Both the position numbers and the translations under genes were made by a program. The notes beneath the pieces were generated by a model. That model was not told the origin of the DNA. It did no database searches and saw nothing but the letters and a program-made list of their open reading frames with translations. Source: an uncultured Candidatus Saccharibacteria bacterium (lineage in GTDB: Bacteria; Patescibacteriota; Minisyncoccia; Phycocordibacterales; Zambryskibacteraceae). From it: a stretch of DNA of 64,000 nucleotides. The stretch is from assembly GCA_964349945.1 (NCBI GenBank), contig CAYGIH010000001.1:227718-291717 (forward strand), read 5' to 3'. Shown here in pieces: positions 17,943-22,852 of this stretch (its first letter is position 1; every line of letters begins with the position of its first letter).

Positions 17943-20183
17943 TTATATCACAATATTGACAATTTTGCCAGCAACAATGATAATTTTTTTAATCTTCTTG
18001 TGGTTGAGCCATTTTTTTACTTCTTTTTGCTCTAAAACCATTTTCTTCAATTCTTCGTCAAAAATGTCAATATGAACCTTTATAGTAGATCTTAATTTGC
18101 CATTTATTTGAATTCCCATGATTACTTCCCTGTTTGTGAGTTTATTTTCATCAAATTTTGGCCACTCTTTATCAAATATTGAAGTTGAATTATTTATTTG
18201 AAGATTAAGTTCCTCACAAACATGAGGAGCAAATGGTGCTAATAATGAAATTAAGATTTCATATTCTTTCTTTGAAATACTTTCTCGCTTTTCTAGTGTG
18301 TTTGCATAAATCATTAAACTAGAGATGGCTGTGTTAAAACCAACATTCTCTAAATCATCTGTAACCTTTTTAATAGTTTGATGCATTAATATCTCATGTT
18401 CAGAAATGATTTCAGCATTTCCTGAATCAATTTTATTTTTTAGTTTCCAGACTTTTTCTATAAATCTCCTTGGACCAACAAGTGAACTTTCATTCCAAGC
18501 AATCGCTTGTTCAAATGGACCCATAAACATCTCATACAAACGAAGAGTGTCGGCACCAAAGCGCCTTATGATGTCATCTGGGTTGATAACATTACCAATT
18601 GACTTACTCATCTTTTCCCCTCCTTCCCCTAATACTAGTCCATGAGATGTTCTTTTTTTATACGGTTCGCTAGTGGGCACCAAACCTATATCGAACAAAA
18701 ACTTATTCCAGAAACGAGAATACAAAAGGTGCAGTGTGGTGTGTTCCATACCTCCGTTATACCAATCCACAGGCATCCAATGCTCTAGTTTTTTCTTCGA
18801 AGCAAACATTGTGTCATTTCTAGGATCTGCATAACGCATAAAATACCAACTAGACCCAGCCCAGTTTGGCATAGTGTCTGTTTCTCTTTTTGCAGCACCT
18901 CCACAGCTTGGACAACTGGTATTTACCCAAGAATCTATGGCTGCGAGTGGTGACTCTCCATTGTCTGTAGGTTCATATTTAGCCACCTCCGGCAACAAAA
19001 CAGGTAAATCTTCCTCTGGTACTGGCACGTTGCCACATTTAAAACAGTGTATAACTGGAATAGGTTCTCCCCAATATCTTTGTCTACTAAAAACCCAATC
19101 TCTAAGTTTGAACCTTGTAACTTTCTGTCCAAAATCCTCAAACCCCGCTTCTTTGTAATCTTTTATAATCGGTAGTTTGTATTTCTTTGCAAATTCCATA
19201 TCTCTCTCATCATCTGCAGGCACTCCCATAATGGCGCCTGTGCCATAATCTGCTGAGACATAATTCACTACCCAAACTGGTATTTTTTCACCACTGGCAG
19301 GATTTGTTACTACGAGCCCAGTATCAACACCAACTTTTTCTTTGTTTTCCCTATCTGTATCAAGAACTACACCAAAATCATCTCCAATCAATTTCTTTGA
19401 AATTTCTGGAGCAATAGCAAGAAAAGTGGCACCAAAGATGGTGTCAGGACGAGTGGTAAAAACTTTTATTTCTTTATCACCATTAAAGACAATCTCCGCT
19501 CCTTCTGACTTGCCTATCCAATTCTTTTGACTTAACTTTACTCTCAGAGGAAAATCTACTGACTCCAAATCCTTGTCTAACCTATCTGCATATTTGGTTA
19601 TGGAGAGCATCCATTGCTCCTTCTCTTTCTTTTCAACCTTTGTACCACACCTCTCACAACAACCATTCACCACTTCTTCATTGGCCAAACCTATTTTATC
19701 TTTTGGACACCAATTGATGGCAATCTTGGCTTTATAAGCTAAATCATGTTTAAGGAATTGCAGGAACAACCACTGGGTCCACTTATAGTATTTTGGATCC
19801 GTTGTATTTATTTCCCTCGACCAATCAAACGAAAGACCAAGAGCTTTTAATTGTCTTCTAAAAACATCGGTATTTTCTTTAGTAACAATTTTTGGGTCTT
19901 TGCCTGTCTTGATGGCATAGTTTTCTGTGGGTAAACCGAAAGCATCCCAACCTATTGGGTAAAGGACGTTGTAGCCCTCCATACGACGTTTACGAGCTAG
20001 TGCGTCTAATGCTGTATAACTCCTTACATGGCCTACATGGAGACCATCTCCTGATGGATATGGAAACTCAACCAACACATAATATCTGGGCTTATTTGAG
20101 TTTTCTTCGGCTGTGCCTGATTTATCCTCTTCCCAAATTTTTTGCCATTTTGATTCTATTTGTTTTGGATCGTAATCCTGCAT
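17943..20183 (-). CDS. leuS: Leucyl-tRNA synthetase (compact, 746 aa)
   Basis: 'PYPSGDGLHVGHVRSYT' HIGH region, 'KMSKSIGN' KMSKS motif, CP1 editing domain. Confidence 0.95.
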   Translation of the reverse strand: MQDYDPKQIESKWQKIWEEDKSGTAEENSNKPRYYVLVEFPYPSGDGLHVGHVRSYTALDALARKRRMEGYNVLYPIGWDAFGLPTENYAIKTGKDPKIVTKENTDVFRRQLKALGLSFDWSREINTTDPKYYKWTQWLFLQFLKHDLAYKAKIAINWCPKDKIGLANEEVVNGCCERCGTKVEKKEKEQWMLSITKYADRLDKDLESVDFPLRVKLSQKNWIGKSEGAEIVFNGDKEIKVFTTRPDTIFGATFLAIAPEISKKLIGDDFGVVLDTDRENKEKVGVDTGLVVTNPASGEKIPVWVVNYVSADYGTGAIMGVPADDERDMEFAKKYKLPIIKDYKEAGFEDFGQKVTRFKLRDWVFSRQRYWGEPIPVIHCFKCGNVPVPEEDLPVLLPEVAKYEPTDNGESPLAAIDSWVNTSCPSCGGAAKRETDTMPNWAGSSWYFMRYADPRNDTMFASKKKLEHWMPVDWYNGGMEHTTLHLLYSRFWNKFLFDIGLVPTSEPYKKRTSHGLVLGEGGEKMSKSIGNVINPDDIIRRFGADTLRLYEMFMGPFEQAIAWNESSLVGPRRFIEKVWKLKNKIDSGNAEIISEHEILMHQTIKKVTDDLENVGFNTAISSLMIYANTLEKRESISKKEYEILISLLAPFAPHVCEELNLQINNSTSIFDKEWPKFDENKLTNREVIMGIQINGKLRSTIKVHIDIFDEELKKMVLEQKEVKKWLNHKKIKKIIIVAGKIVNIVI

Positions 20184-20713
20184 TAGATTGAATCTTTAAA
20201 TTTCCTTACAGCAATCCAAATAAGGATACCAAGAGCTATGGCAAGAATAATAACTTTGATTAGATTGTCTGCACTGGTCCAATATCGCACTGAAGCAATG
20301 ATGAAAGACAAAACACCTGCAATTGATAATGCTTGGCTAATAACTAAATTATTCTTTAGATAATTTCCTAACAAGACACAAAGTGCACCAAGAATAACTA
20401 GAGTAACAAAAACATTTCTATCATAATTCTTTCTTGCTGCATCATATTCTGCTCTACAAGTGAATTGAAGGTCACAATAACCACTGGCTTCCATCTTTTG
20501 TGGAGCATAGGCGGTGTTTTGGTTCCATTGACCACCCTTCGAGACACAGAGGTCTTTTGTGTTTGCTTCTACGACCTGAGCCGTATTAGGACAATAAACA
20601 TCATATGCAGGCTCTTTATAAACTAAAGAAAGAGCATAATTAAAAAACATATTAAGGACTATCACTATACCAATAATAACTGACCACTTAAGAATTTTTG
20701 ATTGATTATTCAT
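20183..20713 (-). CDS. Hypothetical small membrane protein with a Cys-containing exoplasmic loop
   Basis: Three predicted TM segments and a Cys-rich loop ('CPNT...CVSKGG...CDLQFTC'). Confidence 0.45.
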   Translation of the reverse strand: MNNQSKILKWSVIIGIVIVLNMFFNYALSLVYKEPAYDVYCPNTAQVVEANTKDLCVSKGGQWNQNTAYAPQKMEASGYCDLQFTCRAEYDAARKNYDRNVFVTLVILGALCVLLGNYLKNNLVISQALSIAGVLSFIIASVRYWTSADNLIKVIILAIALGILIWIAVRKFKDSI

Positions 20714-20737
20714 TAAGTGATTATAGCAATAATTTAA

Positions 20738-20763
20738 TGAAAAAGGACTAGCTGTGCTAGTCC
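20738..20763 (-). terminator. Intrinsic terminator on the minus strand (GGACTAGC-tgt-GCTAGTCC followed by a U-run)
   Basis: Perfect 8-bp stem; on the minus strand it is followed by TTTTTC. Lies downstream of ychF and the GC-rich small ORF. Confidence 0.6.
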
Positions 20764-20975
20764 TGCTTAATTATAGATTTTCTAGCTTTCAAATCTGCTA
20801 GAATTTGTTTTACTCTTGCTCGTTTACCAGCTCGGACAGCTTCTAGCTGTCTTTTTCCTAACCGACGCTTCATGCCAGCAGTAACTAGCCCTATTTCGTA
20901 ATCACACTCCCGAATCTCTTGCCGGAGACGACGAATTTCAGCATACGGACCAGTCCCACTTATTCCGGGTGTCAT
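20757..20975 (-). CDS. GC-rich small ORF (72 aa, very basic); coding status uncertain, could instead be a structured RNA
   Basis: Has a GGAG about 6 nt upstream and a terminator downstream. Codon and GC composition are atypical for this genome, and there is an internal perfect palindrome at 20835..20851. Confidence 0.25.
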   Translation of the reverse strand: MTPGISGTGPYAEIRRLRQEIRECDYEIGLVTAGMKRRLGKRQLEAVRAGKRARVKQILADLKARKSIIKQD

Positions 20976-21013
20976 AAATGCTCCAGTTAGGGTCTAGATG
21001 AAAGATTACTCCT

Positions 21014-21829
21014 TTATATTAGAAACTCAACCACATCACCATCCTTCATAATATATTCTTTGCCTTCAGTTCTAACCCAGCCCTTAGAGCGAGCAATGGC
21101 ATAAGAGCCGGCTTCTAGTAGTTTCTCATTCTCTATAACTTCAGCACGGATAAACTTCTCCTTAAAATCATTGTGGATTGCTCTCCCAGCCTCTGGAGCT
21201 GTTGAGTTTCTCTTGGTTGTCCAAGCCCTAGATTCCTTTTCTCCAGTAGTGAAAAAAGTTATTAGATCCAAAAGGTCATATCCTGCCTTTATAAGATTAT
21301 CTAAGCCAGTTCCAAAGATTGGGTCTATTTCTATGTAAGGTCCAGGAATCTTTGAAAGCACTTCTCTATGATTCTCAGTAACTTCTGAAGTATTTATCAC
21401 ATATAAGATCGGCTTCTTTATCCCAGCTGCTTCAAGCTCCATATTTATAATCTCTATATCAAAAAGTGGATCTACCTTGTCGTGCACATGAATAATATCC
21501 TTATCTTCAAAAATTCGAACTACCTGAATAATCGCATCAACTTCTCGAATATGAGAGAGAAATTTATTTCCAAGACCAGCACCTTCTGAAGCTCCTTTGA
21601 CTAATCCAGCGATGTCTACGAATTCTACAACAGCAGGAATGACATTTTTGGACTTACTCATCTCAGCTAATTTTGTAAGTCTTTCATCCGGCACAGGCAC
21701 GATACCCACAGATGGGTCTATGGTGCAAAAAGGATAATTCTCTGCAGGCACAGACTTCTTAGTCAAAGCATTGAAAAGCGTAGATTTCCCCACATTTGGT
21801 AACCCAACAATGCCGATTGATAATTTCAT
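21014..21829 (-). CDS. ychF: Ribosome-binding ATPase YchF (short, 271 aa)
   Basis: 'IGIVGLPNVGKSTLFNALT' P-loop; C-terminal TGS-like domain. Confidence 0.85.
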   Translation of the reverse strand: MKLSIGIVGLPNVGKSTLFNALTKKSVPAENYPFCTIDPSVGIVPVPDERLTKLAEMSKSKNVIPAVVEFVDIAGLVKGASEGAGLGNKFLSHIREVDAIIQVVRIFEDKDIIHVHDKVDPLFDIEIINMELEAAGIKKPILYVINTSEVTENHREVLSKIPGPYIEIDPIFGTGLDNLIKAGYDLLDLITFFTTGEKESRAWTTKRNSTAPEAGRAIHNDFKEKFIRAEVIENEKLLEAGSYAIARSKGWVRTEGKEYIMKDGDVVEFLI

Positions 21830-21831
21830 AC

Positions 21832-22803
21832 TTAATTAGAATTTATGGTTTCGTTGCTAAAACTATAAAAAGTAATATTTTTAAATATCTTACTTTTAGT
21901 TATATAACTGTTTAAACTATAAATTCCAAACAATATAACCAAAACAATTAATCCATTAGTAATTAAATAGGGATGTCTTTTGTCTGTTCTTATAAACAAT
22001 TTTAGGATCAGTGCAAGTAAAATAATGGAACCAAATATGACGAAAATTATATTAGCCACATGTCCAGGAGAAGTGACATATTGCATAAATATATTTGACT
22101 TTTGATTTCTTGGTTGAGAAACATCATTATTTATAACTGCTTCAGCTCCAAGGACTTTAACCTCATTTATTTGGGTGGTTGCGGGCTTGCTATTTGATAG
22201 AACTTTCGTAGTTGATACAACAGCAGTTTCTGTCATAGGCCTTGCATAAACTTGAGCGATAAAAATTGTTGGATGGCCCTCAAAGGTACCACTCACTACA
22301 CCCGTACCCATTTCTGTATAAACACCCTTCACTATATTTGCTCTGTGTGTTGGAGAATTCATCCAAGCCAAAGTTACATCTTTAGAATCAGTAAAATCTA
22401 CTGCAAGGTTCTCCCCAGCAAATAGATATTTATAGCCAACTTTATCAAACCAGTACCACGGTGCCTTTCCCTCAGGACTTGTATGAGCGAAGTACCCCTT
22501 CTCAGCCATATCTCTAGCTTTTAATTCTGCTACCTCATTTAAAACAGGATTTATTCTCAAAAGAGCCAAATGATTTTCTTGTCTATTTTGATTCGAAAGA
22601 TCACCTAATACCCCAGGTAAAACTGCAGCAAGGTAACCATTGTATATTGGTCCAATCGTTGGTATATAAGGTATTGCAAATACTCCTAATTCCAAAACAA
22701 AAATTACCAGAATGACAACCCGGATGTTTTTAGAACGTAAAAAATGAGGCTGATGATCGTTCCCTTCATGAGGTATGAAGTGCTTTTTGAGCCATTTAAA
22801 CAT
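21832..22803 (-). CDS. CAP/SCP/PR1-like (YkwD-type) domain protein with N- and C-terminal TM segments
   Basis: 'MNSPTHRANIVKGVYTEMGTGV' CAP signature. Hydrophobic N-terminus and C-terminus. Confidence 0.65.
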   Translation of the reverse strand: MFKWLKKHFIPHEGNDHQPHFLRSKNIRVVILVIFVLELGVFAIPYIPTIGPIYNGYLAAVLPGVLGDLSNQNRQENHLALLRINPVLNEVAELKARDMAEKGYFAHTSPEGKAPWYWFDKVGYKYLFAGENLAVDFTDSKDVTLAWMNSPTHRANIVKGVYTEMGTGVVSGTFEGHPTIFIAQVYARPMTETAVVSTTKVLSNSKPATTQINEVKVLGAEAVINNDVSQPRNQKSNIFMQYVTSPGHVANIIFVIFGSIILLALILKLFIRTDKRHPYLITNGLIVLVILFGIYSLNSYITKSKIFKNITFYSFSNETINSN

Positions 22804-22819
22804 TTAATGATTATAAATC

Positions 22820-22852
22820 AAAAACTCACCCAAGTCTATGGGTGAGTTTTTT
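22820..22852. terminator. Bidirectional intrinsic terminator (ACTCACCCA...TGGGTGAGT flanked by A- and T-runs)
   Basis: 9-bp stem with a T-run on the plus strand and a T-run on the minus strand. Downstream of the beta-helix protein gene. Confidence 0.6.

Follow-up and report, generated by a model that had tools for sequence, protein, structure and literature searches.

A small basic protein gene behind ychF in a Patescibacteria genome, with homologues in phages

A short stretch of DNA between ychF and a membrane-protein gene of an uncultured Patescibacteria bacterium combines an ORF of 72 codons, a raised GC content and two hairpins. Is it a gene, an RNA, or the remains of something mobile? 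We address this question for a 64,000-nt stretch of a contig assigned to Candidatus Saccharibacteria, the whole of which we refer to as “the window”. A preliminary description, made from the sequence alone, offered several readings of the ORF: a degenerate fragment of a mobile-element gene, a gene for a small nucleic-acid-binding protein, or a pair of convergent small RNAs, with a likeness to SRP RNA in addition. Here, we describe the composition of the ORF, its relatives, its hairpins, its genomic setting and the predicted structure of its product, and we weigh what the protein might do. Other loci are cited by number, with the prefix L.

The ORF and its two flanking genes lie where the preliminary description had placed them, and all three are read from the minus strand (Table 1). 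The upstream neighbor is identified as ychF by Pfam matches to MMR_HSR1 (4e-23) and YchF-GTPase_C (1e-30). A purine-rich GGAG or GGAGG is found at the same place upstream of the homologous genes in L083, L086 and L087 (alignment A2). Together, the promoter-like site and the terminators found by consensus scans indicate that the transcription unit here reads CAP gene, ychF, 72-aa gene, terminator. The 72-aa gene thus closes a minus-strand unit of three cistrons, in which it follows the CAP-domain gene and a short form of ychF.

Table 1. Positions of features at and around the 72-aa gene, numbered from the first letter of the window
Feature	Position	Strand	Basis or remark
176-aa hydrophobic membrane protein gene	20183..20713	minus	downstream of 72-aa gene; overlaps leuS start
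Intrinsic-terminator-like hairpin, AGGACTAGC-ACA-GCTAGTCCT then TTTTCATT	20736..20764	minus	consensus scan
72-aa gene	20757..20975	minus	ATG ORF; product MTPGISGTGPYAEIRRLRQEIRECDYEIGLVTAGMKRRLGKRQLEAVRAGKRARVKQILADLKARKSIIKQD
Hairpin inside the ORF, 8 pairs, 3-nt loop, then TTTTCC	20834..20852	plus	consensus scan
N-terminal motif M-T-x-G-[IV]-x-G-[TS]-G-P-Y, codons 1-11	20943..20975	minus	best-conserved part of the family
Shine-Dalgarno GGAG, 5 nt 5' of the ATG of the 72-aa gene	20981..20984	minus	read from sequence
ychF, short 271-aa form, immediately upstream of 72-aa gene, 38-nt spacer	21014..21829	minus	Pfam
CAP-domain protein gene, first cistron of the ychF unit	21832..22803	minus	stop 2 nt before ychF start
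Promoter-like site before CAP gene	22838..22810	minus	consensus scan
Terminator upstream of CAP gene	22851..22820	minus	consensus scan

The 176-aa membrane-protein gene has an unusual start. It has no Shine-Dalgarno sequence, and an extended −10 element, TGCTATAAT (20720-20728, minus), ends 6 nt before its ATG. With the element so close, transcription would begin at or next to the start codon, possibly giving a leaderless mRNA. This putative leaderless arrangement (20711-20728, minus) is not seen in L083 or L092. YchF is a factor implicated in the translation of leaderless mRNAs, and here a gene with a possible leaderless mRNA lies directly downstream of ychF, past the 72-aa gene.

The raised GC content was the first reason to regard the stretch as unusual. 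The ORF does exceed the background (0.447, compared with 0.373 for the window), but it reaches only the 95th percentile of 219-nt windows, and the excess falls wholly in codon positions 1 and 2 (0.60/0.46 versus 0.47/0.36). At the third position, the ORF has a GC content (GC3) of 0.292, and the long ORFs of the window average 0.287. When the same protein was simulated with the codon usage of the window, the total GC content came to 0.424 ± 0.019, i.e., 42.4 ± 1.9%. This value, together with the native GC3, indicates that the “GC island” is an effect of encoding a protein rich in Arg, Gly and Ala. It stems neither from foreign DNA nor from structured RNA, and the native GC3 rules out a recent foreign origin by composition. 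The codons CGG, CGA and GGG had also been described as rare elsewhere. This holds for CGG, which accounts for 3 of the 11 Arg codons in the 72-aa gene and for ~1% of the Arg codons in the window's other long ORFs; by contrast, CGA makes up 13% of the Arg codons and GGG 11% of the Gly codons in the window, and neither is particularly rare. The product is indeed extremely basic, with 18 Lys and Arg residues versus 8 Asp and Glu and a net charge of +10.

Relatives of the protein are difficult to find. A word-indexed search with the single protein recovered only the protein itself, and an exhaustive HMMER search was needed. Searching 1.84 billion representatives with phmmer yielded 23 relatives at E ≤ 1e-3 that cover nearly the full length (51–69 of the query's 72 residues), with 36–49% identity and E-values down to 6e-11. 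These relatives are 62–113 aa long, most of them 62–75 aa. Two profile searches, along with six-frame hits in fetched contigs, brought the collection to 45 distinct sequences with a median length of 69 aa, a net charge of +7 and a pI of 10.1; L091–L100 came from a search with a degenerate nucleotide pattern that encodes the N-terminal motif. The window protein scores 99 bits against the family profile. It begins with MTPGISGTGPY, and so fits the family motif MTxGIxGTGPY, and it shares the conserved L17, Y26, E27 and I55. Across the family, the start codon, the first eleven residues and these four positions are nearly invariant.

The family has two branches. An hhalign comparison of the Patescibacteria-type alignment (A4) with that of the second type (A5) gave a probability of 99.4% (E 3e-21, 67 columns), indicating that the branches are homologous. 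In the Patescibacteria branch, referred to here as branch A, G4, G9 and P10 are invariant and M1 and Y11 nearly so; in branch B, M1, T2, G4, G7, G9, P10 and Y11 are all invariant.

The pattern of substitution is that of a coding sequence. For nine Patescibacteria genes, identity at codon positions 1, 2 and 3 is 0.57, 0.61 and 0.35, respectively, i.e., the third position varies most. The only unsaturated pairs gave dN/dS values of 0.17 for L083–L096 (dN 0.17, dS 0.98), 0.25 for L083–L092 and 0.14 for L092–L096. Synonymous-biased substitution, which the preliminary description had named beforehand as the sign of a real protein, is therefore what the gene displays. Full-length homologues, this bias and the conserved start together indicate a real protein gene under purifying selection. 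As far as sequence can tell, the 72-aa ORF is an intact, genuine protein gene; it is neither the degenerate remnant of a mobile element nor a gene for an RNA, SRP RNA included. One member of the family looks different: in L097 (192-398, on a low-coverage contig) it is split between two frames, and the motif lies at 192 and the remainder in a second frame, at 279-398. Either a frameshift has made this copy a pseudogene, or the assembly is wrong here.

The family has no name in the libraries that we searched. Neither the protein nor the alignments have a meaningful match in Pfam, NCBIfam, PHROGs, PADLOC or any PDB sequence. The single PADLOC match is a weak one, of 1 of the 23 members to a Cas6 model over 27 residues (E 0.003), and the label “CHAD domain-containing protein” that one member carries in its source record rests on a stray weak match. 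The proposed link to mobile elements fails on the same searches: no transposase or IS family in Pfam, NCBIfam or PHROGs is matched at a meaningful E-value, and the gene is intact and of full length, with a conserved start and Shine-Dalgarno sequence. The family does, however, have true homologues in phage genomes.

The two hairpins fare differently from one another. The minus-strand terminator reported earlier stands: its stem (20764..20744) has 9 pairs, 5 of them GC, around a 3-nt loop, it overlaps the TAG stop codon of the gene, and the hairpin appears in the MFE fold. The features of a Rho-independent terminator, i.e., a G+C-rich stem-loop, a T run and a position at the end of a unit, are found together at 20736-20764, as a consensus match. 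No terminator-like site was found behind the homologous gene in L083, L086, L087 or L092. The terminator looks real but specific to this genome, and the 72-aa gene appears to be closed by a terminator of the intrinsic type that ends the unit of CAP gene, ychF and small gene. The hairpin inside the ORF had been described as a perfect 17-nt palindrome and read as a plus-strand terminator. It is in fact an interrupted inverted repeat, with a 7-bp stem (GACAGCT/AGCTGTC; the tool extends it to 8 pairs) and a 3-nt loop. A T-rich tract does follow the stem, but the hairpin is absent from the DNA of the homologous genes, and the window's ORF list has no plus-strand gene upstream of it to terminate. 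It falls in poorly conserved codons of the loop and second helix (GKRQLEAV). By chance alone, 219 nt should contain ~0.12 terminator-like sites (scaled from shuffles, 3.3 per 6 kb), and the hairpin offers no signal beyond that. Its position in the least conserved codons, its absence from homologues and the chance expectation suggest that it is fortuitous, i.e., probably a product of chance. An octamer, CTAGCTGT, occurs in both hairpins (20748-20755 and 20843-20850), and further copies of CTAGC lie between them, at 20783 and 20797.

Could the region nonetheless be chiefly an RNA element, with the ORF incidental? Such an element might be a pair of small RNAs, an SRP-like RNA, or a leader or attenuator (for example a T-box) for the operon of the membrane gene and leuS, directly upstream of which the segment lies. 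Besides the presence of two terminator-like hairpins, the folding of the minus strand points this way, since its 300 nt form a more stable fold than shuffled sequences do (z = −2.5; 2 of 200 shuffles did equally well); the signal comes largely from the two hairpins. The plus-strand fold, by contrast, is unremarkable (z = −1.4). At the gathering threshold, Rfam has nothing at the 72-aa gene and only three tRNAs elsewhere in the window; at E ≤ 10, a scan of 20600-21100 returned only noise centered on the terminator, with no SRP, T-box or other plausible family. The suggested likeness to helix 8 of SRP RNA is thus not borne out by either scan. A T-box or other cis-regulatory leader of leuS, considered separately, was rejected for want of an Rfam match and because the terminator is missing at homologous loci. 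Indeed, neither hairpin is kept at those loci, whereas the amino acid sequence is conserved over its full length with protein-like substitutions. The convergent small RNAs find no support in Rfam or in the substitution pattern, which is that of a protein. The RNA-element reading is already largely refuted, and we regard it as very improbable.

Branch A of the family lives in the chromosomes of Patescibacteria (Paceibacteria/Parcubacteria), in a variable slot of the ychF-leuS block. The gene lies directly behind ychF, on the same strand and at a distance of 34–45 nt, in the window/L001/L002, L083–L085, L087, L088, L091, L092, L096 and L097; in L086 and L103 it follows ychF after one to three small ORFs; and in L098 it adjoins the membrane gene and leuS, without ychF. 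Linkage to ychF is seen in 8 of the 9 informative Patescibacteria contexts. Downstream of the family member, the gene differs between loci; examples are the 176-aa membrane protein gene, a DUF5671 gene and a PfkB gene in reverse orientation. No conserved partner adjoins the small gene across contexts, and the small neighbors in L083, L086 and L103 have no family matches.

The gene is not a regular companion of ychF. We examined the best 80 ychF loci, with one genome per species, including ~42 from Patescibacteria. At none of these ~42 representative loci does any frame within 4 kb encode a family member, and the non-carriers include the closest relatives, with YchF proteins 82% and 77% identical. 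In L013, L058 and L060, the junction is empty: a homologue of the membrane gene comes straight after ychF, and leuS lies beyond it. The preliminary description had raised the absence of the segment from close relatives with retained flanks; both the nearest relatives and these empty junctions do lack it. Since no family gene occurs at the ~42 representative loci, YchF does not need the small protein. In 31 of the 42 Patescibacteria loci (L004–L077), ychF and leuS share a strand and are no more than 4 kb apart. The genes in the gap between them differ greatly, and include those for DUF5671 proteins and for the 176-aa membrane protein family as well as unrelated ones. We conclude that ychF-leuS is an old, conserved block with a variable slot, and that the 72-aa gene is an accessory occupant of this slot. 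Its patchiness reflects either many losses or exchange between related genomes, and the link to ychF may merely mirror inheritance of an old syntenic block. In L086 (6749-9757), the LeuRS is 1,002 aa long and has a NUDIX-family match inside the synthetase (Pfam).

Branch B lives in phage genomes, where its gene belongs either to a Mu-like head module (portal/MuF/G) or to a replication module. In L101 and L102, the gene order is holin, SLT, further genes, gp27, terminase, Mu portal, [gene], MuF and G, with overlapping starts and stops. L107 has portal, MuF, a 124-aa ORF, [gene] and G, and L105, at a prophage edge, has [gene] followed by G. The gene belongs to a replication module in L106, where it adjoins a primase/VapE gene, and to an early-type region with PHROG matches in L089. 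No YchF is encoded near the phage homologues. In curated phage sets, no member was found, either in INPHARED (tblastn) or in IMG/VR (pattern scans). A candidate in L108 was discarded as a chance match over 14 residues, in a frame antisense to a tail gene.

Several neighbors in these phage contexts are of interest in themselves. The MuF proteins at L101 6204-7478 and L107 2511-3716 have a C-terminal PBECR3 domain (a Barnase/EndoU/RelE-like nuclease), and are MuF-type polymorphic-toxin/polyvalent proteins. Immediately 5' of the small gene, L107 (3713-4087, 124 aa) and L105 (7-294, 95 aa, cut by the contig end) encode one and the same protein (77% identity), and these are the only adjoining neighbors in any context that match each other; the protein looks ASCH/PUA-like by eye, and Pfam has no match for it. 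In L089, a DUF3850/“RNA-binding protein” PHROG (2387-2650) lies within the same string of genes as the family member.

The predicted structure of the 72-aa protein is simple. The AlphaFold2 model (pLDDT 85) has two helices, spanning residues 10–32 and 41–71, packed as an antiparallel hairpin. Residues 1–10, which hold most of the conserved motif, have a low pLDDT (58), i.e., they are predicted to be flexible. The modeled fold of the family is therefore a flexible, glycine-rich N-terminus followed by two long helices in an antiparallel hairpin, and the product belongs to a family, rare and unnamed, of basic proteins with a two-helix hairpin. Foldseek listed ABCF, Uup and SerRS among weak, generic matches (E > 1). 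A profile search of PDB sequences returned nothing below E 0.08, and kinship to bS21, uL29, DksA/TraR-type hairpins or Rop was not detectable by sequence. The ribosomal proteins bS21 and uL29 were set aside as candidates: 24 members searched at E ≤ 1 had no Pfam match to Ribosomal_S21 or L29, and no ribosomal chain of this kind in the PDB was matched at E ≤ 10.

The short ychF of the window invites a more specific idea, namely that the helical (coiled-coil) domain, lost from this YchF, is now the separate 72-aa protein and works in trans. The 271-aa YchF of the window lacks the whole helical insert of ~60 residues, with “EAAGIK” in its place (alignment A6), and also lacks a second segment of ~23 residues in the G domain. 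The small protein, a basic hairpin of helices, is about as large as the missing insert, and its gene comes immediately after ychF. However, the presence of the small gene does not co-vary with the length of YchF: L003 and L004 have an equally short YchF, a form also found in L005, and no small gene, whereas L083, L092 and L103 carry the small gene beside a full-length YchF (361–366 aa). The YchF proteins of L087, L006 and L010 (~330 aa) lack only the second segment. Moreover, hhalign gave 1.7% for the family against the YchF alignment, in which the domain occupies columns 141–203, and homologues exist in phages. With neither co-variation nor homology, the split-domain idea is refuted, and we consider it extremely improbable. 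The helical domain of YchF is thought to form half of an RNA-binding cleft, and a clade with a naturally minimal YchF may therefore merit a look in its own right.

We are left with two broad views of an intact gene. The one that we favor, and hold to be probable, though well short of certain, is that this is an undescribed but ordinary gene: an accessory member of a basic hairpin protein family, situated at the end of a ychF operon, with homologues in phages, whose product would act by binding. Alternatively, the gene may be a phage-derived, moron-like cassette that has spread horizontally in Paceibacteria and merely resides behind ychF, functionally unconnected with YchF or translation and perhaps acting, for example, in phage-host conflict. 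Homologues in Mu-like prophages and other phage-like contigs are consistent with such a cassette, as are the empty sites in L013, L058 and L060, the CGG codons, which are unusual for the genome, and the compactness of the unit in the window, where a ribosome-binding site, an ORF and a terminator follow one another. The native GC3 argues against it, as does the absence of an integrase, other phage genes or flanking direct (att-like) repeats around the gene in the window, and so does the absence of members from IMG/VR, INPHARED, PHROGs and PADLOC.

The history of the gene can be read both ways. Carriers are scattered among non-carriers in the YchF tree, and similarity between small proteins does not track similarity between YchF proteins (Mantel r 0.18, P 0.31), as would suit a cassette; but the tree, built by NJ, is only approximate, and the Mantel test is of low power. 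Between L083 and L096, identity is 75% in the small protein versus 61% in YchF, and between the window and L086 it is 41% versus 75%. On the other side, the gene occupies the same junction in genomes whose YchF proteins differ by 25–45%, and repeated independent insertion there is implausible without a site-specific mechanism. On balance, we think the cassette unlikely, though it is the main rival.

If the favored view of an ordinary accessory gene is right, what might the protein do? With no enzymatic or catalytic features, the protein would act by binding. Our best guess is a nucleic-acid- or partner-binding accessory protein that is co-expressed with YchF. The basic hairpin would most likely bind nucleic acid, and the conserved N-terminal peptide would dock onto a partner. 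The companions of the family all handle nucleic acids (YchF, portal/MuF, primase), which favors nucleic-acid binding by the hairpin; even so, the specific combination of a nucleic-acid-binding hairpin and a docking peptide is put forward tentatively, as a possibility that we would not rely on. The preliminary suggestion of a small nucleic-acid-binding protein thus stands as regards a small, very basic protein that is conserved and under selection, while the binding itself is inferred. In the bacterium, the protein would be made together with YchF, a ribosome-associated ATPase with a positively charged helical/TGS cleft that potentially favors RNA interactions (PMC8779481). Given this co-production, it may act on RNA, on the ribosome or on YchF. 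The phage versions would be made with proteins for DNA packaging or replication. A bolder version makes the family an unrecognized RNA- or ribosome-binding factor of Patescibacteria and a working partner of YchF, a stress ATPase; phages would have captured or donated it to influence translation or nucleic-acid handling during infection, and it would dock through its N-terminal peptide. This version strikes us as improbable.

An odd-looking stretch of DNA is resolved as a normal small gene rather than an RNA, a pseudogene or a foreign insert. What is new is a compact, unannotated family of ~45 sequences that is common to ultra-small bacteria and phages and absent from the libraries searched. 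The molecular role of YchF is still debated. If the linkage to ychF is functional, the family would offer a way into both YchF and the reduced translation apparatus of Patescibacteria; otherwise, the gene is one more accessory small ORF.

Several known systems resemble the 72-aa gene or its product in part. Two-helix antiparallel hairpins of ~60 residues with a basic surface bind RNA in the helical domain of YchF, the inter-domain hairpin of ABCF proteins and the N-terminal arm of seryl-tRNA synthetase, and the predicted 72-aa protein shares this architecture with them and with Rop. However, the first three are parts of larger proteins and Rop is an acidic dimer, and none of the four has the MTxGIxGTGPY N-terminus. 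The small basic ribosomal protein bS21 is, like the family, encoded in both bacteria and phages; bS21 and uL29 resemble the family in being ~70 aa long, very basic and helical, but the 72-aa gene is accessory rather than universal. With respect to genomic context, the closest parallel is pth-ychF of enterobacteria, where a gene is co-transcribed with ychF, much as the 72-aa gene is co-oriented within a ychF unit; arguments for a role in translation have been built on this type of linkage (PMC8779481). Pth, though, is an enzyme of known function and unrelated sequence, whereas the partner here is a non-enzymatic hairpin of 72 aa, encoded downstream of ychF in a minority of related genomes. Lastly, like phage morons, the 72-aa gene is small, has its own terminator, lies between conserved neighbors, is patchily distributed and has phage homologues. 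Unlike morons, it has no promoter of its own, using that of the ychF operon, and its GC3 is native; and in Mu-like phages the family gene is translationally coupled to structural genes, whereas morons are insulated.
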